Source: Bacteroidota bacterium (GTDB lineage: Bacteria; Bacteroidota; Bacteroidia; UKL13-3). Taken from it: DNA of 39,211 bases. How positions within the stretch are numbered: position 1 is the stretch's first letter; each line of letters opens with the position of its first letter. The position numbers and the translations under genes are program-made. This document shows, piece by piece, positions 2,287 through 30,973 of this stretch. Under the pieces are notes generated by a model. That model was not told where the DNA came from and ran no database searches. It saw only the letters and a list, made by a program, of their open reading frames with translations. The stretch lies in NCBI GenBank assembly GCA_040386055.1, contig JAZKGH010000103.1, positions 44,304 to 83,514 on the forward strand, read 5' to 3'.

Positions 2287-3330
2287 TTAGGGTTTAGGAG
2301 GGAATGACCAAGAGGCTTCTTGAATATTGTAGTGCAGATATCCGTTTTGTATTGCAAGCGGAGAGGTTATATTATTGAGATACAGGTTACCCGTTCCCAA
2401 TCCCTGTGGCAACGTATGTTGGTGTTCTGCACACCACTGCGCTATGGCATTAAGTCCCACATTGCTTTCCAATGCGGAAGTGGCCCACCAGCCAATATGG
2501 TTGGATTGAGCATATCCAATCCATTTATCAGCATTTTTAAACCCACCTATTAATGTTGGTTTTAAGATGATGTATTGTGGTTTGATAATCTTCAACAAAT
2601 CCTTTCCTTCTATTATTACATCCACCCCAATAAGTTCCTCGTCCAAGGCAATAGGGATAGGTGTTTTCAAACATAATTCGTGCATATAATCATGTTGTCC
2701 CGCTTTAATGGGTTGTTCGATTGAATGAACCTCAAACCTTGAAAGTATTTTTAATTTTTCGGAAGATTCATCTGTAGCAAAAGCCCCATTTGCATCCAAT
2801 CGAAGCTCTACCTTAAATGCTGAATGCCGTTTTCGAAAAGCCTCCAGCATCCTGCACTCATCGTCAAAATCTAATGCGCCAACTTTAAATTTAATGCAAT
2901 CAAACCCTTGTTCCACCTTAGCAAATGCTTCCTCCAGCATTTCATCCTTAGTATTCATCCACACAAGCCCGTTTATCTTAACAGGCACACCCGCAAGAAA
3001 CGAATTGTCAAACACCATAAAGGGCACATCATATTGCAAGGATAAGGAAGCTGTTTCAAATGCAAATTGCAGTGATGGAAATCCTGATAACGGCAAAGCA
3101 TCTATTGGTAATCCATCATTGATGTATGCAATACACTCAATTACTTTTTGCTCGAAATCGGGTCTGTCGTCAATGCTTAATCCCTTGAGTGGAGCTGCTT
3201 CCCCATAACCTATGCGATTGCCTTGTTGCAATACAATATAATACACCTCATGCGTATTCATAGTACCGCGTGAGGTTCTAGCTTGCTTTTTAAGTGTTAA
3301 TTCATGCCGGATATAAGAAGCAACAATCAT
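2287..3330 (-). CDS. menC: o-succinylbenzoate synthase (enolase superfamily)
   Basis: Motifs GEAAPL, KFKVG, LRLDANG, IEQP, LDEEL, ILKP, SALES and GLGTG; adjacent to menA. Confidence 0.9.
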   Translation of the reverse strand: MIVASYIRHELTLKKQARTSRGTMNTHEVYYIVLQQGNRIGYGEAAPLKGLSIDDRPDFEQKVIECIAYINDGLPIDALPLSGFPSLQFAFETASLSLQYDVPFMVFDNSFLAGVPVKINGLVWMNTKDEMLEEAFAKVEQGFDCIKFKVGALDFDDECRMLEAFRKRHSAFKVELRLDANGAFATDESSEKLKILSRFEVHSIEQPIKAGQHDYMHELCLKTPIPIALDEELIGVDVIIEGKDLLKIIKPQYIILKPTLIGGFKNADKWIGYAQSNHIGWWATSALESNVGLNAIAQWCAEHQHTLPQGLGTGNLYLNNITSPLAIQNGYLHYNIQEASWSFPPKP

Positions 3331-3332
3331 GG

Positions 3333-4292
3333 TTATAACAGTGACTGAATAAGCTGTGAGGCCATTTCCATTCTGGCAATCATATTAGTAACAATAAATA
3401 CCAAAACCAGTAACAATGTTCCCAACGATAACTGTTTTAAAAATCCGTTATAAACCGGTGAGGGTTCTGTTTTTAATACTCCAATCCATGTTTTCACGAT
3501 TAAAACCATTGCCGGTAATTGCAACAATTGCACCCAGTATGTGTATTCTATAAACAAGTATGTACTAAACGAAAGCAATGCCAATACAATCAATACCGAA
3601 TGATAACCCCTTGCTTTTTGCAGCCCGATTTTTACAGGAATCGTAAATTTCCCGGATGCTTCATCATTGTCGATATCACGAATATTATTGGTGTTTAATA
3701 CTGCTGTGCTTAACAACCCAACGCCAATTGCCGGCAACAAAATAACCCTATCATTGACCCAATTAAAGGTTAGCCCATTGCACAATACAAATGTTCCAAT
3801 AACCGATACGGGACCAAAAAAGATAAACACTGCAACGTCTCCTAAACCACTGTAGCCATAAGCGTTTTTTCCTACTGTGTATTTGATTGCTGCAATAATT
3901 GCCGCAATACCCAGTCCAAAAAAGAGAATAAAAGTCGTGTTGAATTGTCCGTTGGTTGCCTTGTACAATAAACTTACTCCGCTCACCAGCGATAACATCA
4001 CCAATAAAATAATTGCGCTTTTCATTTGCGACACAGTAATGTCGCCACTCTGCAATGCGCGCATATTTCCTACCCGTTTATCATTATCTGTTCCCTTCAC
4101 AAAGTCTCCATAATCATTGGCCAGATTAGATAAAATCTGTAACAAAACGGCTGTGGTAAGGCACAATATGGCCACCTTACCCGTTGTACTGTAGTGTAAA
4201 TCAGAAAGGGCAATGCCTGATAAAATAGCTGATGCTGCTAATGGTAAGGTGTGTAAACGCATTGCACTCACCCATGTTTTTATAGTACTCAT
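3333..4292 (-). CDS. menA: 1,4-dihydroxy-2-naphthoate octaprenyltransferase
   Basis: UbiA family: RLHTLPL, NLANDYGD, NNIRDIDND, GKFTIPV; multiple TM helices. Confidence 0.93.
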   Translation of the reverse strand: MSTIKTWVSAMRLHTLPLAASAILSGIALSDLHYSTTGKVAILCLTTAVLLQILSNLANDYGDFVKGTDNDKRVGNMRALQSGDITVSQMKSAIILLVMLSLVSGVSLLYKATNGQFNTTFILFFGLGIAAIIAAIKYTVGKNAYGYSGLGDVAVFIFFGPVSVIGTFVLCNGLTFNWVNDRVILLPAIGVGLLSTAVLNTNNIRDIDNDEASGKFTIPVKIGLQKARGYHSVLIVLALLSFSTYLFIEYTYWVQLLQLPAMVLIVKTWIGVLKTEPSPVYNGFLKQLSLGTLLLVLVFIVTNMIARMEMASQLIQSLL

Positions 4293-4347: not shown

Positions 4348-5649
4348 CTAATTTTTTAACCAGACTTCCGGATCCAGCTTTTTATCCATGTTCCAGATCT
4401 GAAACTGTACCTCTGTTACGCCATCTTCATTAGTGTCCACTACGCCAATGGTTTGTTTACTATCTACCACCTGCCCCTCATGAACGGTTGTTGAAGCTAA
4501 GCGTGCATAGGCCGTAAAATATTTACCATGACTAATCAATACAATTTTGCCCATGCCGGGTACATTAAATATTTTAGTCACCTTGCCTTTAAAAACTGCG
4601 CGAACATTGGCATTGGGCTGGGTACTTATATCCACTCCGTTGTTGTTTACCTGCACTCCTCTTAAAGTAGGATGTGCGTGGGTACCAAATGCTTCGGCTA
4701 TATAACCACGCTCAACAGGCCAAGGTAAATTGTTTTTGTTTTGCTCAAAATCGTTCGACATCTTGAGTACTTCGGGTGTTAAGAAAAGATCGCTTTCTAC
4801 CTTAGTTGGTTTGGCCGGCTCGGGTTTAGTCGGGGAGCTTTTTCCGGCAGCTGCATTTCTGGCAGCCTCTTCACGTCTCCGTGCTTCTTCTTTTCTCCGT
4901 GCTTCTTCAATTTCACGGGCAATCATTTCTTCGATGGCGCGGTTTAGTTTTCTGGCCGCTGCCTGACTTTCGGCTAACTGCTTGCGTACCTCTTTCTCTT
5001 GCTGTTGCAACGAAACCAATACTTTGTTTTCTTCCTGCTTATCCTGCTCAAGTTCTTTCTTCTCACTTTCTTTCATTCCAATCAAGGCCATCTTCTCCTG
5101 CTTTTTGGCAAGCATTTGATTAAGTGCTGTAATGATCTCGTTTTGAGTGCTGAGAATAAGTGCCGCCTGGCGTTGACGGTAATCGCTGTATTGGTTGAGG
5201 TATTGAATGCGTTTAAGGGCCTGGTTAAAACTTTCTGCTGAAAAAACGAACATCATCTTATCATATACATTGCGTGATTTGTAGGCACTTAAAATGCTTT
5301 TAGCATAATCAGCCTTCAGCTTTTCCAAATCGGCTTTCAGCTTGTTTAAAGAATCCCTTGATTCTTCAATCTGCTGGCCTAATACACTGATTTGTTCCTG
5401 TACGTTATTGATTACACGTTCACGTGTCTTGATTTGGCTGGTAATCGCTTTCAGCTGCGTTACGGTAGTATTTTTTTTCTGCCTGGTTTCGGCCAATACT
5501 TGTTTGGCTTCTTTTATCTTTTCGAGTAGTTCTTTCCGTTTGGTTTCCAGTGCCTGACGTTGGGCTGTGGGTGATGTTTGCGCAAACGAAACAATGGTTA
5601 AGCAAACCATTGTTGTTAAAATAAGAATCCTACATGCGCACTGTTTCAT
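4348..5649 (-). CDS. EnvC-like murein hydrolase activator (coiled coil plus M23/LytM domain)
   Basis: Signal peptide ending FAQ, long coiled coil, then LPWPV and NNGVDI (degenerate M23 without Zn ligands). Start is uncertain (5649 or 5610). Confidence 0.88.
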   Translation of the reverse strand: MKQCACRILILTTMVCLTIVSFAQTSPTAQRQALETKRKELLEKIKEAKQVLAETRQKKNTTVTQLKAITSQIKTRERVINNVQEQISVLGQQIEESRDSLNKLKADLEKLKADYAKSILSAYKSRNVYDKMMFVFSAESFNQALKRIQYLNQYSDYRQRQAALILSTQNEIITALNQMLAKKQEKMALIGMKESEKKELEQDKQEENKVLVSLQQQEKEVRKQLAESQAAARKLNRAIEEMIAREIEEARRKEEARRREEAARNAAAGKSSPTKPEPAKPTKVESDLFLTPEVLKMSNDFEQNKNNLPWPVERGYIAEAFGTHAHPTLRGVQVNNNGVDISTQPNANVRAVFKGKVTKIFNVPGMGKIVLISHGKYFTAYARLASTTVHEGQVVDSKQTIGVVDTNEDGVTEVQFQIWNMDKKLDPEVWLKN

Positions 5650-6424
5650 ATGACTTAGGGATGGTAAACTGAATGTCCTTCTTTTTTTCGAACACAAAAT
5701 TGCTGAGTTCAAATTTGGTTTCCATATTTTTTTCTGCCCTAATGTTGATAGAAAACTTGTTTGGGAATTGATTGCCGCCCTGAGTGTACACCTCTTCATA
5801 CTCAACCTTCATTTCCTGATTCTTTTGAGGGTCTGATAACGTTGAGCGGGTTACATTCAAATCCTGTCTGTACATTGTTTGCTGTGTATGCGAAGAAGAA
5901 ACAGCCTGACTGATCAAAATATAATTGAGAACACTGTCTATTTTGCTTTTTGAGGCGTTGTTGGGAAACAATGTGTTACCTATGAACAGGTTTTGCAAAT
6001 TGGTTAAGTTGAGATCAGCATGGGTAAGGTTACGCACATAATCATAACGCGCAATAATGCATTTGCGGTGAAGCATATCCAAAATCACAATCGAATCTTG
6101 TGTGGCGAACACCCGGGCTACCGTAATACCTAATATGGCGGTTACGTTCATGTAAATAAACCTGTCCTTTTCCATTACAATACTTACCCCAAGATCCTGC
6201 TTGGTGTCATTGTCTTTGTATGAGGCCTTTCCGTTTGCCGAATAATAGGAGAATGTGGTTTGTTGTTGCTCTATAGCTGCAATCAAGAGATCCTTGGTGC
6301 TGGGTTTGCCCATGTTCACTATAGACTTTTCATCCTGCTTTATTCCTTTTTTGCTCCTGCACGAAGAAGTGATAACCATCAATCCTATTATACCCAATAG
6401 CAGGTATTGAATCTTACTCTTCAT
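5630..6424 (-). CDS. DUF4292 family lipoprotein
   Basis: Lipobox ITSSC; conserved position between the TPR and EnvC-like genes in Bacteroidota; C-terminal FTIPKSYE. Confidence 0.8.
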   Translation of the reverse strand: MKSKIQYLLLGIIGLMVITSSCRSKKGIKQDEKSIVNMGKPSTKDLLIAAIEQQQTTFSYYSANGKASYKDNDTKQDLGVSIVMEKDRFIYMNVTAILGITVARVFATQDSIVILDMLHRKCIIARYDYVRNLTHADLNLTNLQNLFIGNTLFPNNASKSKIDSVLNYILISQAVSSSHTQQTMYRQDLNVTRSTLSDPQKNQEMKVEYEEVYTQGGNQFPNKFSINIRAEKNMETKFELSNFVFEKKKDIQFTIPKSYETVRM

Positions 6425-8136: not shown

Positions 8137-9147
8137 CTAAAGTTGTGTGCTGTAATCACCAATGCTTAAATCTTTGGCCTCACCGTTGTACTCAACGTAA
8201 TTGCCGATCATTGCATTGTCAATCACTGCATTTTTTATCTTGCTGTTGGTTTGAATAATACAATTACTCACTACAGAATTCTCAATAATCGTGCCGTCAC
8301 CAATACTGGCGTATGGGCCAACCACAGCATGTTTAATCACTACATTTTGGCCGATAAACGATGGTTGGATAATCATGGCGTTTTCTGTTTTCACGGTATC
8401 ATTTACCATTTTTTCACCTTCGGCATGCATGTGAAACAGGATACGCGAATTGGTAAATACTGTTGAATTTTTATTGCCACAATCCAGCCATTCCTGTACT
8501 TTTCCGGGTTCGAATTTCAACCCTTTTTTCTTCATGTTATCAAGAGCATCTGTCAATTGATACTCGCCTTTTGTCACGATTTTGTTATCCAACAAATATT
8601 GCAATTCGGTGCGAAGGTTACTGCCGTCTTTAAAGTAGTAAATACCTATAATGGCCAAATCGCTTACAAACTCTTGCGGCTTTTCAACAAAATCAGTGAT
8701 TACCCCATTGCCATCTAGTTTCACAACTCCAAACTGGCGGGGATCTTCAATTTGCTGAACCCAAATAATTCCGTCCTTACTTCTGTCGAGTTTAAATCCT
8801 GCCTTGAACAAGGTGTCGGCAAATACGATTAAAACATTTCCATCTAGAGCTTCTTTAGCACACATAATGGCATGTGCTGTTCCCAATGCCTCGCTTTGAT
8901 AATGAATGGTTCCTTTGGCTCCAAGCTTTCCGGCAACATCAATCAGTTTTTTCTCTACTTCTTTACCAAAACTAGGATGAATAATGTATGCTACTTCCTC
9001 AATACCTTCTCCGCAAACAGCCTCCAGGTCTTCAATAATTTTTTGCACAATTGGTTTTCCACCTACCGGGATTAACGGTTTAGGAACTGTTAATGTGTGT
9101 GGCCTCATGCGCTTGCCCATCCCGGCCATTGGTACAATTATCTTCAT
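8137..9147 (-). CDS. Sugar-phosphate nucleotidyltransferase (glucose-1-phosphate thymidylyltransferase-like)
   Basis: MKIIVPMAGMGKRMRPHT...PKPL, LGTAHA, EKP, WLDCG; C-terminal hexapeptide-like repeats. Confidence 0.9.
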   Translation of the reverse strand: MKIIVPMAGMGKRMRPHTLTVPKPLIPVGGKPIVQKIIEDLEAVCGEGIEEVAYIIHPSFGKEVEKKLIDVAGKLGAKGTIHYQSEALGTAHAIMCAKEALDGNVLIVFADTLFKAGFKLDRSKDGIIWVQQIEDPRQFGVVKLDGNGVITDFVEKPQEFVSDLAIIGIYYFKDGSNLRTELQYLLDNKIVTKGEYQLTDALDNMKKKGLKFEPGKVQEWLDCGNKNSTVFTNSRILFHMHAEGEKMVNDTVKTENAMIIQPSFIGQNVVIKHAVVGPYASIGDGTIIENSVVSNCIIQTNSKIKNAVIDNAMIGNYVEYNGEAKDLSIGDYSTQL

Positions 9148-22273: not shown

Positions 22274-25210
22274 ATGTCCTGCTCCTTACTAAAAAGAACC
22301 TTCGTCATCTTTTCCGGAATGCTCACGCTGCCGGTTATACTTTTTTCACAAACCCTGCGATTCGAGCAGTTCGGTGTTCAGGAGGGTTTACCTTCAAGCG
22401 AGGTATATAATCTATTCCAGGATGATAAAGGGTATGTATGGGCTTTCACGCAGTATGGGATTGTAAAACACGATGGCCGGAAATTTATACCGGTTTGCAG
22501 AAACCTCTCTTTTGATGAATTAAAGGTATATGTAATTCGCAGATCGTTGCAGGGTAATCTGTATATCGGAAACTCAAATGCGCGGATCTATTGTATAAGG
22601 AACGACAGCGCTTTTCTGGTCAATGGGCTGAAAGCCGTTTCAAAAAAAATTACCACAGACAACGAGATCCTTTTCGACATGCTTGTGGTTGACTCTTCGG
22701 AGATCTATCTATCTACATACAAAACGAGTTACCGATTATTTAAAAATAAACGCTCATTGCTCACAGGTAAAGGTCCACTGACTGTCAGAAACATTGACTT
22801 CAAAAAAAAAGGAACCGATTTCATGGTCATTTATAAGAAGCCGGTACCCGGTAATACTGTTATTCGGATCATGAATGAAAAAGACAGTGTGCTGTATATT
22901 CTCCCTGCCGATACCATGCCAAATTGGGGGGTAAGGAGCTATTTACGGGAAAGCCATGGCAATTATTATATCCTGCGATGGCATGGAATAACCCATATCG
23001 GCAAAAATGGTTCAGTACATACTACAGCATTTAAGGACCGGCTAATCTGCATGGAAACTGGTCCGGGAGGTCATATATGGCTGGGCACGGATAACGGGAT
23101 ATACGAACTTGATAGTAATCTGAGAATCCTTACCCATCATTTAAAGGGTCATGCGATTTCCGATGTATTGTTTGACATGGATAACGGAATGTGGGTTTCA
23201 AGTATCGGGCATGGGTTATTCTATTGCCGTAATATGTTCAACGTTTTTTATGACGATGATGATGCACTGTCCGGAAATATTACACTGTTAAAAAAGATCG
23301 GCCACACACTTTTTATCGGAACGTCATCCGGCTCATTATTTTCAAAAAACAGTGGTGCGACCTACAAGATCAACCTGGATCAAAGTGGGTTTTCCCTGAA
23401 TGACATTATTCTTTTCAATAATGAGTACCTGATCGGAACCAAAGGGTCTATTTTAAGCATGGATACAACCTTAAAACGGTTTGTAAGCAAGCCATATACG
23501 TACATGAATGGAGAATGGATAAACAGTTACGGTTTTGCCCAGTTAAATCCTGACACACTTATTTTTATTTCGGGATCGGCCATTTTGAAAAAGGATAAAA
23601 AGCAGGGTACGATCATCTCACCCTTTTTCAGGGCGCGGACCTATACCCGAAGCCTCATTATCAGGAGTAATGATCATGCCTGTTTTGTTGGTGCACAAAA
23701 CGGCTTGTTCCTGCTGGCAGACTCATTGGTTTGTCCTCCTTTTTTATGGCCTTTGCGGGAAAGGAAAATTGTGGCATTAAAATCGGGAAAAGGAAATACT
23801 ATCTGGATTTGCACCAAGGGGTATGGCCTCTATGTATTGCAGCCTGATAACAAGCTGGAGAAAATAGCCGACTGTCCTACAAATGTCATTAACAATATCA
23901 GTTTTACGGGAGACACCACATTATTGTCAACAAACAAGGGTTTGTTCATGTCAATTTCAAACAATGTGCGACATGCATTGTGGTCTTGCATTTTTAACAA
24001 TGAGGTCTTTGCTTCGGAGATTTATGGTGAGCACATTTATATAGCAACCTCCCAGGGGCTTGTTGCGCTGAATAAAAAAAATGTATTGCAAAAAATTGCG
24101 CCACGGTTTTACCTTGAGGCGGTAACCTCAGGCAAAGAAATAAAAGATCCGCACCATTTAGATCTGACTTATCAGGAAAACGACCTTTATTTTGATTTTG
24201 ATATACCCATTTATGAAAACCAGGAATATGACTTGTCTTATCATCTTGAGGGCCCGGATGCTGGCGAAGGAGTCATTGCGGGTGAGCAATTACATTTACA
24301 GAACCTGTCTCCCGGTCACTATTTATTGCAGGTCCGGGCGGTAAACAATACCGGAACTCATTATTCCAGCCCCAGGATCGATATCCCTTTTTATATCAAA
24401 CCTGCCTTCTGGCAAACCCGTTGGTTTTTAGTTGTTGTTATCTTAAGTTGTTTGTTGAGTGCCGGTTTGGTTATGGGCTATAGTTATCGCAGGTTGAAAA
24501 GAAAAGGAGAAGCAGAGGCCCGAATTATTCGCCAGCTTGCGGGATATCGCCTTACGGCTTTAAAAGCCCAGATCAATCCGCATTTTATATCCAACTCTCT
24601 TGCCGCCATTCAACAGCTGGTATACAGCAATGAAATAGATAAGGCCAACAGATATATTGCCAAATTCAGCCTGCTAATCAGGTATGCATTGGAATATTCT
24701 GATAAAATGGTGACAAGCCTGGCTAATGAACTGAAAATTATTGATATTACAGTAGAGTTGGAACAACTGCGGTTTAGCAATCATTTTATTTTTGAAAAGC
24801 AGATTGATAAAGAGATTAACCCGGATGATTTTTTTGTGCCGCCTCTCATTACGCAGCCTCTTATTGAAAATGCAATATGGCATGGACTGTTGCCGCTTAA
24901 AGACCGGAGAGTTCCAAAGCTGATCTTAAAGATTAGTATCGACAAGGACCATCTGGTTATTTCCATTATTGATAATGGTGTGGGAAGACGGATTCCTGAT
25001 TATAACGAAGAAGAAAACAGACAGGGTCGCGATTCACGGGGAACATTCCTGATCACGAGTTGGATAGAAAGTTTAAATAAGCTTTTTCTGACAAACAGCG
25101 CGGCCATTCAGTTTATTGACCTGCCTGAAAAGCCTGATGCTCCCGGTGGAACGCGTGTCGATATTTCTTTTAAGCTGGAGGCATTAACAAAACTTTACAA
25201 CGAACATTAA
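22274..25210 (+). CDS. LytS-type sensor histidine kinase with beta-propeller and YYY domains
   Basis: EGLPSSEVY and IWLGT propeller repeats; LQNLSPGHYLLQVRA (YYY); TM helix; LKAQINPHF; QPLIENAIWHG; DNGVG. Confidence 0.92.
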   Translation: MSCSLLKRTFVIFSGMLTLPVILFSQTLRFEQFGVQEGLPSSEVYNLFQDDKGYVWAFTQYGIVKHDGRKFIPVCRNLSFDELKVYVIRRSLQGNLYIGNSNARIYCIRNDSAFLVNGLKAVSKKITTDNEILFDMLVVDSSEIYLSTYKTSYRLFKNKRSLLTGKGPLTVRNIDFKKKGTDFMVIYKKPVPGNTVIRIMNEKDSVLYILPADTMPNWGVRSYLRESHGNYYILRWHGITHIGKNGSVHTTAFKDRLICMETGPGGHIWLGTDNGIYELDSNLRILTHHLKGHAISDVLFDMDNGMWVSSIGHGLFYCRNMFNVFYDDDDALSGNITLLKKIGHTLFIGTSSGSLFSKNSGATYKINLDQSGFSLNDIILFNNEYLIGTKGSILSMDTTLKRFVSKPYTYMNGEWINSYGFAQLNPDTLIFISGSAILKKDKKQGTIISPFFRARTYTRSLIIRSNDHACFVGAQNGLFLLADSLVCPPFLWPLRERKIVALKSGKGNTIWICTKGYGLYVLQPDNKLEKIADCPTNVINNISFTGDTTLLSTNKGLFMSISNNVRHALWSCIFNNEVFASEIYGEHIYIATSQGLVALNKKNVLQKIAPRFYLEAVTSGKEIKDPHHLDLTYQENDLYFDFDIPIYENQEYDLSYHLEGPDAGEGVIAGEQLHLQNLSPGHYLLQVRAVNNTGTHYSSPRIDIPFYIKPAFWQTRWFLVVVILSCLLSAGLVMGYSYRRLKRKGEAEARIIRQLAGYRLTALKAQINPHFISNSLAAIQQLVYSNEIDKANRYIAKFSLLIRYALEYSDKMVTSLANELKIIDITVELEQLRFSNHFIFEKQIDKEINPDDFFVPPLITQPLIENAIWHGLLPLKDRRVPKLILKISIDKDHLVISIIDNGVGRRIPDYNEEENRQGRDSRGTFLITSWIESLNKLFLTNSAAIQFIDLPEKPDAPGGTRVDISFKLEALTKLYNEH

Positions 25211-25218
25211 CAGTGCTT

Positions 25219-25980
25219 ATGAAAACAATATCCACGCTGATCATTGACGATGAAGAAGCCAATCGCGACACACTAGGCATGATGCTGGCTCAGTATTGCC
25301 CAGAGGTTAGAGTGTTGGGAACGGCCTCCTCTGTTGAATCTGGCTTTCACCTGATCTCGGAAACAAACCCCAATCTTGTTTTTTTAGACATCAGGATGCC
25401 CGAAAAAACGGGATTTGACCTGTTGCGCCTGTTTACCAAAATTGATTTCCATGTCATTTTTGTTTCCGCCTTCGATCAGTATGCGATCCAGGCCTTTGAA
25501 TTTAATGCGGTAGATTATATCCTGAAGCCTATCGATCCGGACAAACTCGTAAATGCGGTAAATAAGACAGTAAGAAATATTCAGAATAATGCACAACAGA
25601 ATGTGCTTCATTTTGTGCATTCCATAGACGAAAAAAGCGCACTCATCAAACGTATCTCTTTGCACCATCAACATAAAGTTCACCTCATCGATATTGATAC
25701 GATCTGTTATGTAAGGGCTTTGCGCGAATATTGTGAGATCACGGATGAGGGTGGTCAGAAATTTATTTCAAGTAAAACATTATCCGATTACGAAGACCTC
25801 TTAAGACCCTTCCCCAATTTTTTGCGGGTGAACAAAAGTGTCATCATCAATATTCACCATGTAAGTGAATACACAAAAGGTACAGATTGTATGGTTACGC
25901 TGAATAACGATACCGAAATTGAAGTATCGAGAAGAAAAAAAACAAGCATCCTTCAATACCTCAAAGGGTATATAGGATGA
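25219..25980 (+). CDS. LytTR-family response regulator
   Basis: REC domain (IIDDE, FLDIRMP, YILKP) plus LytTR domain (FLRVNKSVIIN, VSRRKK). Confidence 0.95.
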   Translation: MKTISTLIIDDEEANRDTLGMMLAQYCPEVRVLGTASSVESGFHLISETNPNLVFLDIRMPEKTGFDLLRLFTKIDFHVIFVSAFDQYAIQAFEFNAVDYILKPIDPDKLVNAVNKTVRNIQNNAQQNVLHFVHSIDEKSALIKRISLHHQHKVHLIDIDTICYVRALREYCEITDEGGQKFISSKTLSDYEDLLRPFPNFLRVNKSVIINIHHVSEYTKGTDCMVTLNNDTEIEVSRRKKTSILQYLKGYIG

Positions 25981-26099: not shown

Positions 26100-26229
26100 G
26101 CTATGCTATAAAGCTAGCGGTTGCCGAAAAGCTTTACGAGTAGGCAAAATTCAACCCAATTAATTTATACATTACATGTTTACGAGCACAACATTACCTT
26201 TTGAGTCGCGTTCCGGCTCTCCGCTTTTC

Positions 26230-27756
26230 ATGAAACGTTTTTTTATGTACTGCGTATGTGCAGTATTGTTATTCACCTGTACACATGCATCCGCACAAGT
26301 GATCGATCTCAGGACCGGGGTCAATGGATCAGGTCTCATTGCCGTTGGTTCAACTGACGATACCTGGACCGTAAAGGTTCCCGGCTCCACCACTTATCAG
26401 CCCGCATACTGTGGTACCGGTGTGGCTACCGGCCCGATAATTCCAATGGTATATTTAACAGGCCTTGATCCCTCAGTAAGATGGATCACCCCCTTGATTG
26501 ATGGTATAGGCGACCACCTTTATGATGCGCCAATGGGTAACTATTATTATAAGATGACTTTTGACTTCTCCAGAGAGTGTTTGGCTACGGAAGCTACATT
26601 TAATCTGAACCTGGCAGGGGCAGATGACCAGATCACTCATGTTATTGTGAATGGCAATTCATATCTAGTTGCATATGGTTTCAATCCTTTTTCTACAAAC
26701 ATTACCCTACCTATTAATCCTGCCAATATTCATCCCGGTGCAAATGAGATCATATTCAGGGTTTGGAACTATGGCAACATTTCAGAGCCCTATTCACCAA
26801 CAGGGATGGAGATCAATGGTAACCTCACCATCGTAACGGGTCCTGATGCATCGTTCTGTATGTCGACACCTACAAGTTCAAGTATGTCGCTTACGGCCAA
26901 TAGCCCAGGGGGAGGTCATCAATGGGAGATCTACAGCAGCCCCAACGGCAGCCCGGGCTCTTATACTTACATGGGCATGGAAACCGGCTCTTCAGTCAAT
27001 TACTCAGGTGCAGGCCCATGCTGGCTGGTTAAACATGCCTTAACAAATGACTGCGGTTTTGCTTGCGTTGCCCAAAGTGCTTGTTATCAATCGTGCGAAA
27101 CACCCATAAGTTATGGCTGTTCAGAATTAACGCCTCCAACCAACCTTGTATATGATGCAGCAACAGGTGTGCTCTCCTGGACCCCCGTTTCCGGAGCGGT
27201 TTCATATACCATACAATTGATTATAAATGACGCCACTTGTTGCAATCCCGACCCCGGCAGCCTTGGCGTTGTATTCACTGTTAGTGCAACAGGTAATTCT
27301 TATATACTCAATGCTGCCGCCCTTACTGCGCTCGGTGTACTAACTACCCCTAACTGTTTCTCATGGCAGGTCACTGCAATATGTTCAGGTGGAGCCACTG
27401 CACGGTCCGAAAAGAAATGTGCATTCCCGCCATCGAAATCAATCAAAGGACCCATGGCTAAAGTTGCCCCTACCGGGATAAAAGATCCGAAAACAGAAAA
27501 GGCTACTATGAATATGTATCCTAATCCTGTAAAAGGATTTGTGATGATTGATCTCTCTGTAAAAAATGATGTGACGTTCAATGTTACTATCACCGACATA
27601 AGTGGCAAAGTGGTTAAGACCTTTGAAAACCTTAAAACGAAAGATGCCAAACAAAGTGTAAAATGGAATACCGAATCGGTAAGCAAAGGCGCTTATCTTG
27701 TGAAGATTCAGACTTCAGACAATCAGGTTATTCACAATAAACTGATTGTAGAATAA
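26230..27756 (+). CDS. T9SS-secreted Cys-rich protein (lectin-like beta-sandwich, FN3-like domain, CTD)
   Basis: Signal peptide ending ASAQ; ADD..VIVNG...GANEIIF jelly-roll-like region; PTNL...LSWTPVSGAVSY (FN3-like); MYPNPV...GAYLVKI...KLIVE (CTD). Start is 26230 or 26176. Confidence 0.82.
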   Translation: MKRFFMYCVCAVLLFTCTHASAQVIDLRTGVNGSGLIAVGSTDDTWTVKVPGSTTYQPAYCGTGVATGPIIPMVYLTGLDPSVRWITPLIDGIGDHLYDAPMGNYYYKMTFDFSRECLATEATFNLNLAGADDQITHVIVNGNSYLVAYGFNPFSTNITLPINPANIHPGANEIIFRVWNYGNISEPYSPTGMEINGNLTIVTGPDASFCMSTPTSSSMSLTANSPGGGHQWEIYSSPNGSPGSYTYMGMETGSSVNYSGAGPCWLVKHALTNDCGFACVAQSACYQSCETPISYGCSELTPPTNLVYDAATGVLSWTPVSGAVSYTIQLIINDATCCNPDPGSLGVVFTVSATGNSYILNAAALTALGVLTTPNCFSWQVTAICSGGATARSEKKCAFPPSKSIKGPMAKVAPTGIKDPKTEKATMNMYPNPVKGFVMIDLSVKNDVTFNVTITDISGKVVKTFENLKTKDAKQSVKWNTESVSKGAYLVKIQTSDNQVIHNKLIVE

Positions 27757-27770
27757 AAAATATATATTAG

Positions 27771-28476
27771 TTATAGGGCATTTTAAAAGACACAAATGAA
27801 AACAACGTTAATCGCACTTTCAACACTACTTTTTTCTTTCACTGACAACCCTGTTGACAGACTTGGCGTAGAAGGACCATTAGAGTTCAATAAAATAAAT
27901 TTCACATTAGCATGGACAGACAAGCCTAATGACAATTATTATATCCAGGAATATTTACCAAACGGAGAAAAGCCAGAAAGTTTTAACCAAATGTTGACTA
28001 TCCACCTTTTTAACACTGACATAAAAACAAAGGATGCAGTAGGACAAAAAATAAAGGAATTAGCTGCAAGGAAAAAAACGGATGCTATTTGTAATTATCA
28101 GGTTAACGAAAGCCCCGATGGCAAAGAATTCATAGTGGATTTTTTACTTGGAGAAAGTAAAGACGAAAAAATGACTATCGTTGAATTCAATGTTTATCGC
28201 TACAAACAAATAGAGATTTCTAAAAAGAAAAAGGCAATTATTGTATATGCATACTCAAAACGAAGTTATGCTGACGACATTACAACCTTTTTCAAAACAC
28301 TCAAAGAAGACAGGGCAGACTACCTGAATCAAATGATTTCGGCAGATATTCCAACAGTGACATTTGAAAGTAAATAATTCATTACCGAAAGAAAAACGCC
28401 CTACAACAATACACCTGCAACGGGTGGGGTTTGATTGCTTCGCGGGTAAGCCTGCTCATAGCAAATCTCCAAAATG
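27771..28476 (+). mobile_element. Putative integron-like single-gene cassette
   Basis: Left junction G|TTATAGGGCATTTT. After the stop codon comes AAAACGCCCTACAAC (13/15 inverted match), then an imperfect hairpin ending at G|ATAA. Confidence 0.6.
27796..28377 (+). CDS. Exported hypothetical protein (cassette-borne)
   Basis: 193-aa ORF with a hydrophobic N-terminus; YYIQEYLP and EFNVYRY motifs. Confidence 0.8.
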   Translation: MKTTLIALSTLLFSFTDNPVDRLGVEGPLEFNKINFTLAWTDKPNDNYYIQEYLPNGEKPESFNQMLTIHLFNTDIKTKDAVGQKIKELAARKKTDAICNYQVNESPDGKEFIVDFLLGESKDEKMTIVEFNVYRYKQIEISKKKKAIIVYAYSKRSYADDITTFFKTLKEDRADYLNQMISADIPTVTFESK

Positions 28477-28479
28477 ATA
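28393..28479 (+). other. attC-like recombination site (degenerate)
   Basis: R''-like GCCCTACAAC; arms acctgcaacgggtggg and cctgctcatagcaaat pair imperfectly; ends at G|AT. Confidence 0.5.
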
Positions 28480-28524
28480 AATAAAAAGGACTGGTGACTT
28501 CGGTTACCGGTCCTTTTTATTTAT
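28477..28524. terminator. Intrinsic terminator with cUUCGg loop
   Basis: ataaataaaaaggactggtgac-ttcg-gttaccggtcctttttatttat. Confidence 0.88.
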
Positions 28525-28654
28525 ACCTTCAGCAGCGATATAAAAACAATTGATGTGTTTGTCTGTGGTGGTGTGTGTGTTATGCACCCGTAAATGTTAT
28601 AGTTAACCCTGGGGAATTTTAGGGTCGGTTTATGTGTGTTAGTCTGCACGTAGC

Positions 28655-28751
28655 AAGTTGCAAACATGCTCGTGTAGAATGATTGAAGTTGCAAACTTCA
28701 ATCAGCATAATCAATCAGCCAAACACAATGCTCTGTGAAGTTTGCAACTTG
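28655..28751. repeat. Degenerate REP-like cluster (AAGTTGCAAAC units)
   Basis: Two direct copies and one inverted copy; perfect hairpin tgattgaagtt-gca-aacttcaatca at 28680-28704. Confidence 0.6.
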
Positions 28752-28812
28752 CCATACCGCATAAAAATAATGTGCACTAACTATTTTTTCTCTTTTTTAG
28801 TATCTTTCGTTC

Positions 28813-29445
28813 ATGAAAACAGTAGACTGGCCTTCCGCACTCAAACCGTTGCTTGCCCAATACAAGGGCAAGCCTCACCCGCTTGAATACAAAAACCTTT
28901 ATCAATTGCTGGTAATGGTGATCCTCTCCGCACAGGATTCCGACAGGAATATTAACAGCCTGGCTCCGGCATTATTTAAAGCATTTCCGGATATGAAATC
29001 ACTTGCCCGTGCAGATGGGGAAGCGCTGTTTCCGTTCATCAGCAAAGTGCGCAACTTCGGTAACAAAACGAAGTGGTTAATGGAACTTGCCAATACCGTG
29101 AAAGACGATAAGAAGATTCCATTAACAATGGAAGAGCTCACATTGCTTCCCGGCATCGGGCGCAAGTCGGCTAATGTGATTATGCGCGAAGCCAAAGTAA
29201 AAGCCGAAGGTGTAATTGTTGATTTGCATGTGGTGCGTGTAGCCCCGCGTTTAGGCATAGCCACAGGTACCGATCCTAAAAAAATAGAAAAACAAATTAT
29301 GGATGTGGTACCTCAAAAGGACTGGGGTGAAGTAGGTATGGCCATTTCCTTTTTAGGAAGAGAAACGTGCAGACCTACTAATCCAAAGCATAGTGAGTGT
29401 GTGATGAATAAAGTGTGTGCTTTTTATGCGGAGCAGAAGGGTTGA
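28813..29445 (+). CDS. nth: Endonuclease III (HhH-GPD DNA glycosylase/AP lyase)
   Basis: ILSAQ, LPGIGRKSAN (HhH, catalytic Lys), VDLHV (catalytic Asp), C-terminal FeS-like motif. Confidence 0.92.
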   Translation: MKTVDWPSALKPLLAQYKGKPHPLEYKNLYQLLVMVILSAQDSDRNINSLAPALFKAFPDMKSLARADGEALFPFISKVRNFGNKTKWLMELANTVKDDKKIPLTMEELTLLPGIGRKSANVIMREAKVKAEGVIVDLHVVRVAPRLGIATGTDPKKIEKQIMDVVPQKDWGEVGMAISFLGRETCRPTNPKHSECVMNKVCAFYAEQKG

Positions 29446-29455
29446 TAGGTTGAGC

Positions 29456-29588
29456 AGTCAGTTCGAGTAGCGGGCGCGGGTGTTGCGTTGCGCGTATCGA
29501 GAACGGGTTCAATTTTAGCAACTTTGCTCACGAATACTTCTCGATACAGCCCTTGACACAAGCCTACCCAAGCTTACTCGAAGTGACT
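29456..29588. repeat. MITE/REPIN-like element, copy 1
   Basis: Terminal inverted repeats AGTCAGTTCGAGTA/TACTCGAAGTGACT; inner inverted repeats GTATCGAGAA/TTCTCGATAC. Confidence 0.8.
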
Positions 29589-29604
29589 ATAAACCGAAAA
29601 CCGT

Positions 29605-30599: not shown

Positions 30600-30630
30600 A
30601 ACGGTTAGTTTAATTATGTTTTTAGGATGA

Positions 30631-30798
30631 CCGGTGATGTTTTTTTCTTATCCGTTGATACTTTTTCCTTATCCGATGGTGTTTTTTCCTTGTCCCTTCA
30701 TGGTTTTTCCTTATCCGTTGATACTTTTTCCTTATCCGATAGTGTTTTTTCCTTGTCCCTTCATGGTTTTTTCTTATCCGTTGATGGTTTTTCCTTCT
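30631..30798. repeat. Tandem array of eight 21-bp units with a 63-bp higher-order period
   Basis: Units such as ccgttgatactttttccttat, ccgatggtgttttttccttgt and cccttcatggtttttccttat. Confidence 0.92.
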
Positions 30799-30829
30799 TG
30801 AGTGATGATGTTGGGAGTTGGTTAATAGT

Positions 30830-30973
30830 AGTCAGTTCGAGTAGCGGGGTTGGTGTTGCGTTACGCGTATCGAGAACGGGTTCAATTTAAGCCGTATGCT
30901 CACGAATACTTCTCGATATAGCTCTTGACACCGACCACCCCTCCCGATAGCTATCGGGATACTCGAAGTGACT
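30830..30973. repeat. MITE/REPIN-like element, copy 2
   Basis: Direct copy of 29456-29588 with an extra perfect 18-bp palindrome tcccgatagctatcggga at 30942-30959. Confidence 0.8.

Follow-up and report, generated by a model that had tools for sequence, protein, structure and literature searches.

A probable integron-like gene cassette stranded between a secreted-protein gene and its terminator in a Bacteroidota genome

Introduction

Judged by the features of the arrays, the closest published kin of the system described here are the rAID-1 arrays of gut Bacteroidales, which look like the same design. According to the accessible text of Ross et al. 2019 (10.1101/471110), these arrays occur in 226 of 423 Bacteroidales genomes and combine a 5' XerD-like recombinase gene with co-directional genes of low G+C content (GC) and with intergenic repeats that are 'reminiscent of integrons'. 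They were defined there by a recombinase whose identity to the B. fragilis NCTC 9343 reference exceeds 44% and by at least two co-directional downstream genes with a GC of at most 41%; they were described for the order Bacteroidales, and orphan immunity genes are over-represented in their cargo. How rAID biogenesis proceeds is termed an open question in the accessible part of a 2025 preprint (PMC12247911). Here we analyse a stretch of 39,211 nt from a Bacteroidota bacterium of the UKL13-3 lineage (assembly GCA_040386055.1, contig JAZKGH010000103.1, positions 44,304 to 83,514; "the window"), in which a small open reading frame (ORF) occupies the space between a gene for a protein with a type IX secretion system (T9SS) sorting domain and the terminator of that gene. 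We interpret this block as probably being a single cassette of an integron-like system that is widespread in Bacteroidota.

Bacteroidota are listed among the phyla with integrons in the accessible text of a review (PMC8618304), and the corresponding text of the IntegronFinder 2.0 preprint gives for Bacteroidetes only In0 elements and a single complete integron, in Salinibacter ruber. The insertion that characterises the integron integrase IntI is not fully conserved in an 'integron-like' subgroup of simple tyrosine recombinases, as stated in the accessible text of Smyshlyaev et al. 2021 (PMC8138268); insertion-less members of that subgroup could accommodate the recombinase found here, and arrays or sites of such members are not described in that text. 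In the literature searched, which comprised sources outside subscription journals and supplements, we found no account of hairpin sites, of the box rule set out below or of stand-alone cassettes for a recombinase of this type.

Results

Extra DNA between a T9SS gene and its terminator

In the window, a block of extra DNA separates the T9SS gene's stop codon from the terminator that belongs to this gene (Table 1). At E <= 1e-10 the T9SS gene was matched in six of 119 family genomes, the genome of the window (G000) being counted; the best ortholog is 68% identical and belongs to a genome of another genus (G106), and an ortholog in G135 is 50% identical. When G106 is aligned with the window, the end of the gene is matched as far as position 27759 (63 identical of 80 columns) and the alignment resumes at 28478, where 40 of 47 terminator bases are identical. 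The gap between gene and terminator is thus 10 nt in G106 and about 718 nt in the window, and apart from a 15-nt chance match the insert has no counterpart in G106. The terminator itself is strong, as an earlier annotation made from the sequence of the window alone (the first-pass annotation) had stated when assigning it to the T9SS gene: its RNA folds with -29.9 kcal/mol (z -10.4), and none of 200 shuffled sequences folded equally well. An E-value search of positions 27000-29500 against Rfam gave nine matches, all far under the gathering scores, of which only a terminator look-alike was useful.

The GC of the insert is 35.3%, compared with 45% in both flanking genes and 39.7% genome-wide. It has no DNA match among seven other genomes of the same genus, and its ORF was found in none of the seven and in three of 61 genomes overall (G000 counted). 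The first-pass annotation had predicted an empty allele in relatives. The unoccupied locus of G106 agrees with this, at the distance of another genus; within the genus no such allele was obtainable, the T9SS gene having no close ortholog there (G003 is matched in the tail domain only), and in G003 and G004 the stretch that lies upstream of nth is a different one.

Ends of the block and of its relatives

Near its two ends the block carries GTTATAGGGCATTTT (27770-27784) and AAAACGCCCTACAAC (28393-28407), which match at 13 of 15 positions as an inverted repeat. The two mismatched positions read C.A on the top strand and become G.T on the bottom one, and the computed junction of a circularised unit has an unbroken stem of 16 bp on the bottom strand. 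The ORF starts only 25 nt after 27771. In all these respects the first-pass annotation, which had read the block as a solitary integron-like cassette, was accurate.

What gives the repeat its meaning is comparison. The ORF has 404 homologs at E <= 0.001 among 492 candidates, and the nearest of these (L072, 89% identical; L022, 87%; L023, 84%) lie in or beside cassette arrays and possess both the boxes of the window and intact hairpin sites. End boxes identical to those of the window occur at four loci (L022, L023, L026 and L072): the units of L023 and L026 open with GTTATAGGGCAT, and in L022 and L072 the stop codon is followed by AAAACGCCCTATAAC and then by a long hairpin ending in AAAACGTT. 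Other units have different boxes and obey the same rule, namely that the box behind the ORF of a unit reappears, as its reverse complement, in that unit's first ~15 bases; they were seen at L028, L108, L111, L118 and L122, and in the window's own genome on contigs C273 and C267. A mismatch of the type AAAAC/CATTTT, which is G.T on the bottom strand, recurs across units. The prediction that homologs of the ORF would keep the same ends therefore holds for these loci, identically or by the same logic, and fails for the majority of homologs, which show no cassette signs.

Copies 84-89% identical to the ORF were found in metagenome-assembled genomes (MAGs) of Cytophagales, of Saprospirales type and of Flavobacterium, and homologs at 60-90% identity are distributed patchily over records of Cytophagales, Saprospirales type, Flavobacteriales, Sphingobacteriales, Bacteroidales and Ignavibacteria. 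In L118, at least five co-oriented cassettes, one with this ORF family, form an array in which hairpins of ~125 nt stand between the units. Just upstream of the ORF homolog in L118 (2925-2960) one hairpin has collapsed to R'' box, spacers and R' box by a deletion between short direct repeats, so fusing two cassettes. In L023 and L122 a hairpin site lies directly upstream of the ORF, and the cassette array of L122 (1-1600) begins right after a gene with a T9SS tail. A lone cassette with an intact site and the 87%-identical ORF stands directly after mnmE in the Chryseolinea serpens record (L022, 2900-3735).

A blastn-short search with both ends found no second copy in the window's own genome, a search that is misleading as a test of cassette sites because these are conserved in structure and not in sequence.

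Hairpin sites conserved in structure

The cassettes end in a hairpin site of ~121 nt with the form AAC...GTT. When 28 such sites from seven genomes were aligned, 94.6% of the cells were paired and 16 of the 17 arm pairs showed compensatory changes, whereas controls in which the alignment was slid were only 30-38% paired. By the measure of this covariation, hairpin sites of the kind are real. A first, mixed alignment of sites (A4) was too heterogeneous and was dropped for modelling.

A covariance model (R1), built from sites of relatives only, found nine sites in the window's own genome, on five other contigs (C220, C229, C267, C273 and C275), in line with the genome-wide scan for similar sites that the first-pass annotation had proposed. 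Sites were found in 37 of 41 genomes searched (E <= 1e-5, G000 counted), seven of which had supplied training sites. A search of the L214 array against Rfam gave no match at E <= 0.01. The intact site of L072 folds better than shuffled sequences on the bottom strand only (z -2.69, as against -0.47 on the top strand), which together with the recurrent G.T box mismatch hints at use of the bottom strand by analogy with integrons. The arms of the alignment have no evident conserved bulged (extrahelical) bases.

Some sites in the window's own genome belong to units with a single cassette. On C275 (minus strand, 5040-6170) and C220 (minus strand, 2730-3893) a RibD_C/DHFR-like gene is followed by a leader of the attI-like type described below and by one cassette with an intact site; there is no recombinase gene adjacent to either unit. 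On C229 (minus strand, 8386-8883) a one-cassette unit with an intact 121-nt site directly follows a GH92-like gene, with the left junction TATACAATA|GTTATAGGC.

An array-linked, Xer-like recombinase

Contig C273 (minus strand, 184 onward) has a leader with two palindromes, followed by at least three cassettes with ~121-nt sites and hence at least three co-directional ORFs. The 54 nt before this leader are identical to the end of contig C304 (1-1056) and encode the last 14 codons of a tyrosine recombinase of 347 aa, an overlap in sequence that links the enzyme to an array in its own genome. The next 141 nt upstream in C273 are unrelated to C304 (34/141), so the assembly graph branches at this point and there is an alternative upstream path without the recombinase gene. 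The C273 array has a GC of 33.6%, compared with 39.0% for the recombinase gene.

The recombinase has the Pfam domains PF13495 and PF00589 and scores 222 bits with NF040815 (cut-off 220) and 194.5 with TIGR02249 (cut-off 265). It aligns end to end with XerA structures. In comparison with VchIntIA (2a3v) it has 15 residues opposite 57 of IntI and thus is without the IntI-specific insertion, and it has an extra N-terminal part of ~85 residues; a Pfam search with the N-terminal 90 residues at E <= 10 returned only DUF7912 (E 0.098). The genome of the window, which is 84% complete, has only three PF00589 tyrosine recombinase genes, none reaching the integron-integrase cut-off. The first-pass annotation had described the cassette as lacking an integrase, which is true of the locus itself and untrue of the genome, in which nine model sites are spread over five contigs and C304 carries the recombinase gene. 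It had also suggested looking for an array-adjacent tyrosine recombinase with or without the IntI insertion; the enzyme found is of the latter type.

Homologs of the recombinase were found in 26 of 41 genomes at E <= 1e-40, many of them at contig ends. In seven genomes (G006, G007, G008, G014, G017, G022 and G046) arrays with ~121-nt sites lie downstream on the same strand. The two Bacteroidaceae genomes reached through L029 and L030, and those of Chryseolinea serpens and Pontibacter vulgaris, gave only matches 30-35% identical, the best in Chryseolinea serpens being 35%. One candidate for the system's enzyme, the recombinase of L122, was rejected as part of an unrelated integrase element downstream of the array (L122, 3840-4412) with excisionase-like neighbours.

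After the stop codon of the recombinase gene there is a recurrent attI-like junction of the form TATAnnnnA|GTTA. Among the 18 recombinase leaders with a length of 120 nt or more, 16 contain the motif TA[TAC]A-N4-AGTT, 72-93 nt past the stop, compared with 155 of 5000 random windows of 150 nt. The two leaders without the motif contain near variants, and in four shorter leaders the junction can be seen by eye. Contigs of three other assemblies (L182, L186 and L192) end 1-4 nt from the A|GTT(A) junction after the recombinase gene, which suggests that the first cassette varies within these populations.

The left junction of the window, TATATATTA|GTT (27761-27772), fits this motif and falls exactly at G|TT; at L183 the nine bases before GTT are identical. 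Of the two crossover points given in the first-pass annotation, G|TT on the left and G|AT on the right, the first was thus recovered to the base, and at the second G|ATAA is compatible and not demonstrable.

A site reduced to its 5' half

The 3' site of the window aligns with the intact sites of L022, L023 and L072 from the R'' box through spacer and left arm into part of the centre, and from this alignment it is a truncated or hybrid site. The right junction is unmappable because the 3' half of the site is missing. The copy in the window is, on this evidence, probably a stranded, immobile cassette with half a site. The imperfect hairpin of ~80 nt that the first-pass annotation had drawn at 28393-28476 did not survive, the region folding no better than shuffled sequences on either strand. 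Its broader proposal of an attC-like Bacteroidota cassette with a non-canonical core of the GTTATAG type is supported by the ends of the relatives and by the arrays.

A second GTTATAG heptamer occurs at 28578-28594, 112 nt beyond the proposed right junction; the bases in front of it, CACCCGT, are the complement of left-arm positions 28420-28426. Model R1 found no half-site at 28578-28594, and this second heptamer may be a chance occurrence.

Discussion

Origin of the inserted block

We favour the interpretation that 27771-~28476 is one cassette of a widespread Bacteroidota integron-like system, inserted by an Xer-like recombinase, with the 3' half-site lost or replaced later, and consider this probable. 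The system as we picture it consists of an Xer-like tyrosine recombinase gene, a co-oriented attI-like junction and a row of promoterless single-gene cassettes with ~121-nt sites. The box rule is what circularisation of cassettes, with cutting between G and TT, would be expected to produce, and the Xer-like enzyme would be what cuts the folded sites at G|TT. At the window, a circular cassette was most likely placed in an AT-rich attI look-alike between the T9SS stop codon and the terminator, the enzyme presumably acting in trans. The 3' half of the hairpin site would have been lost or replaced afterwards, leaving the cassette probably fixed in place, and its ORF would be transcribed by read-through from the promoter of the T9SS gene.

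Several observations weigh against this interpretation. No recombination has been observed. The unoccupied state is represented by a single genome of another genus, G106, whose lineage may instead have lost the block. The synteny of the T9SS gene differs between G000 and G106 on both sides, and because it is not conserved on either side the comparison for the extra DNA rests on that one genome; the second ortholog, in G135, is on a contig that stops 44 nt past the gene. In Logan contigs of the probable source sample, with one spanning contig, neither an empty form nor a circle joint was seen, contigs being blind to rare forms. At the right end, the left arm has no complement and the usual ...AAAACGTT ending is missing, model R1 finds nothing even with filters off and E <= 10, and the fold of 28393-28476 is unremarkable on the top strand (z -0.57, 52 of 200 shuffles equally good) and on the bottom strand (z +0.56, 144 of 200). 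A clean site-specific right junction therefore cannot be mapped, and is placed only within ~28440-28479.

The wider comparison has weak points as well. The inverted repeat on its own does not exceed chance: when the whole 3.29-Mb genome was scanned for GTT+12 against 12+AAC, with at least 10 of 12 matching and 200-2500 nt apart, 470 such pairs came to light, and it is the comparative data, not rarity, that give the repeat its meaning. Model R1 hits only 10 of 81 ORF loci, most homologs being without cassette signs, and the end-box signature (at least 9/12), counted at loci with a complete ORF and complete flanks, occurs in three of 54 ORF loci against 22 of 2000 mismatched control pairs. In 15 of 41 genomes the search for the recombinase at E <= 1e-40 gave no match, and several of these have sites, such as G001 with 37.

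Of the other explanations, the one that survives best, though we consider it unlikely, is that the T9SS gene headed or came with a small array, from which everything between the midpoint of the first hairpin site and the array end was deleted to leave one cassette with half a site, or that a donor in which the arrangement already existed passed on the entire block through homologous or illegitimate recombination. This would account for the missing right arm and for a remnant whose alignment with intact sites is confined to their 5' and central parts. Other loci are in its favour: the L122 array starts directly after a T9SS-tail gene, C229 has a one-cassette unit after the GH92-like gene, and L118 shows that hairpin sites collapse by internal deletion. 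The T9SS gene and its terminator also stand in different neighbourhoods in G000 and G106. However, the deletion would have to end within a few bases of the point where terminator homology resumes, and the exact G|TT at the left junction, with its attI-like motif, fits an insertion, although an array founded at this place would give the same junction.

The proposal in the first-pass annotation of a classical integron cassette, moved in trans by an IntI-type integrase acting on a folded bottom-strand attC site and a secondary site of GWT type, now seems very improbable. It draws on the AAC/GTT triplets, the cassette logic, the bottom-strand bias of the two mismatches and the better-than-shuffled fold of an intact relative's site on the bottom strand only, and on the listing of Bacteroidota among phyla with integrons in the text of the review cited above. 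Against it stand the small set of three tyrosine recombinase genes in a genome 84% complete, the TIGR02249 score of 194.5 where 265 is needed, and the paucity of integrons given for Bacteroidetes in the accessible IntegronFinder 2.0 text. The platform that is present is of another kind: the array-linked enzyme is Xer-like and without the IntI insertion, and in many genomes the arrays are headed by such an enzyme in the same orientation as the cassettes. From these sequence comparisons the system is an integron analogue, rAID-like, and not an IntI integron.

More doubtful still is the view that the ORF is an ordinary second gene of a T9SS operon, lost in relatives, with an inverted repeat that arose by chance. 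The chance level of the repeat is in its favour, as is the fact that most homologs of the ORF are plain chromosomal genes, with a conserved context in, for example, the Bacteroides loci L029, L030, L114 and L116. Such a gene would not be expected to share its end boxes with its closest homologs in unrelated orders, to have copies 84-89% identical in MAGs of Cytophagales, of Saprospirales type and of Flavobacterium and none found in its own genus, to be 10 GC points under its flanks, or to be followed by an R'' box and left arm homologous to intact sites. Least credible of all is a small transposon or miniature inverted-repeat transposable element (MITE) bounded by the 13/15 repeat, as the repeat does lie near both ORF ends, but its right arm stops ~70 nt short of the right end of the extra DNA, neither a target duplication nor a transposase is present, the genome has no other copy, and the R'/R'' boxes of the arrays explain the same geometry.

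Relation to described systems

The arrays resemble rAID-1, as characterised in its accessible descriptions, in their co-directional short low-GC genes, in the integron-reminiscent intergenic repeats and in that the arrays break assemblies; the C273 array, with at least three ORFs and its GC of 33.6%, lies within the rAID-1 limits for gene number and GC. They differ in that hairpin structure, an R'/R'' box rule and stand-alone cassettes do not appear in those descriptions.

Classical integrons share with the present system the promoterless single-ORF cassettes in one orientation, the imperfect hairpin sites bounded by AAC...GTT, a putative G|TT crossover and an insertion site adjoining the recombinase gene. 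Integrons also insert cassettes at secondary sites. In contrast, the recombinase described here has no IntI insertion (15 residues where IntI has 57) and carries the N-terminal extra of ~85 residues; it is encoded upstream of the array, co-oriented with it and transcribed towards it, whereas the integrase gene of integrons is divergent, with attI in between. The R stems are long (~15 bp), without evident bulged arm bases, and the core is GTT-A/G-T/G... and not GTTRRRY. Hairpin sites, the hallmark of integron cassettes, are intact in the arrays and no longer so in the window. SALIN elements, a category that IntegronFinder has beside CALIN and that is named in its accessible text, are similar in that cassettes occur singly away from an integrase; the window has the exact left G|TT junction of such a cassette and lacks the 3' half of the site at the right end. 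A MITE or insertion sequence would be expected to end in its repeat and to have further copies, and here the right repeat arm is internal and the genome has no further copies.

Xer-type recombinases move discrete gene modules without a dedicated transposase in other settings also. The pdif modules of Acinetobacter plasmids and the IMEX elements use short double-stranded dif-like sites and the host XerC/D. The system described here differs in its ~121-nt hairpins with covarying arms and in the dedicated recombinase gene that heads the array.

The system is partly in print already; what is new is that a cassette is seen away from any array, together with a comparison site that is unoccupied and a target that is attI-like. 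The window offers a concrete picture of cassette genes leaving arrays and becoming fixed chromosomal genes, and it supplies a testable target motif for the recombinase. Integrons are usually held, in the accessible accounts, to be nearly absent from Bacteroidota, yet hairpin sites were found in 37 of the 41 genomes searched; and gene gain in rAID-1, which looks alike in design, is still termed unknown in the accessible text of PMC12247911.

As a tentative extension, which we regard as possible and rather less likely than the interpretation of the block itself, an insertion-less Xer-like recombinase, with no bulged bases as cues, might choose the strand through the long R stem and the recurrent G.T wobble, and might insert cassettes both at its own attI-like site and at chromosomal TATAnnnnAG look-alikes, typically in gaps between a stop codon and a terminator, where cassettes would ride on host transcription and decay to ordinary genes. 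If so, the platform would steadily supply Bacteroidota with new accessory genes across the whole genome, and recombination at hairpin sites would have been solved a second time, independently.

Features of the locus and its surroundings

The cassette ORF, whose homologs bear the precomputed label PF27161, gave no match in Pfam or NCBIfam profile searches with its own protein sequence. Its AlphaFold model has a mean pLDDT of 87.7, and a Foldseek search of the PDB with this model gave no match at E <= 0.001, the weak top rows being PsbP/Mog1/START-like folds.

Table 1. Coordinates of the features discussed, as positions in the window
Feature	Position	Strand	Basis or remark
Host gene with T9SS C-terminal sorting domain, predicted secreted protein	26176..27756	+	ORF; Pfam PF18962 Por_Secre_tail, E 7.1e-15
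Left half of the insertion site, TATATATTAG, mimic of the attI-like junction	27761..27770	+	motif TA[TAC]A-N4-AGTT matched at 27761-27772
Cassette 5' end, extended R' box G|TTATAGGGCATTTT	27770..27784	+	same box opens the L023 and L026 cassettes; reverse complement of own R'' box, 13/15
Inserted block	27771..28476 (limits of the first-pass annotation)	+	left end precise; right end uncertain, within ~28440-28479
Cassette cargo, 193 aa, signal-peptide-like N-terminus, family PF27161	27796..28377	+	ORF; precomputed label on homologs
Extended R'' box of the attC-like site, AAAACGCCCTACAAC	28393..28407	+	aligns with R'' boxes of intact sites in L022, L072 and L023
Incomplete attC-like site: spacer, left arm and some of the centre	28408..28469	+	aligns with the 5' half of intact sites; right arm missing
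Intrinsic terminator of the T9SS gene, now also terminating the cassette ORF	28477..28524	+	G106 homology; RNA fold

Two possible regulators of the T9SS gene are encoded directly upstream of it in the window (22274-25980): a hybrid sensor kinase that contains beta-propeller repeats, and a response regulator of the LytTR type.

Two repeat families occur downstream of the terminator. One is a hairpin repeat of ~55 nt with arms of the GTTGCAAAC type (28649-28709), of which G000 has many copies (for example on C260, C146, C178, C150, C264 and C267) and which is also found in G003 and G007. The other is a family of intergenic repeats of 130-150 nt, represented at 29439-29589 and ~30827-30931 between nth and a 3-demethylubiquinone-methyltransferase-like gene, with copies on C49, C250, C75, C65, C48, C124 and C300 and also in G002, G003 and G007. 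In addition, overlapping ORFs at 30627-30890 encode a repetitive peptide of the FSLS type, which suggests a tandem DNA repeat.

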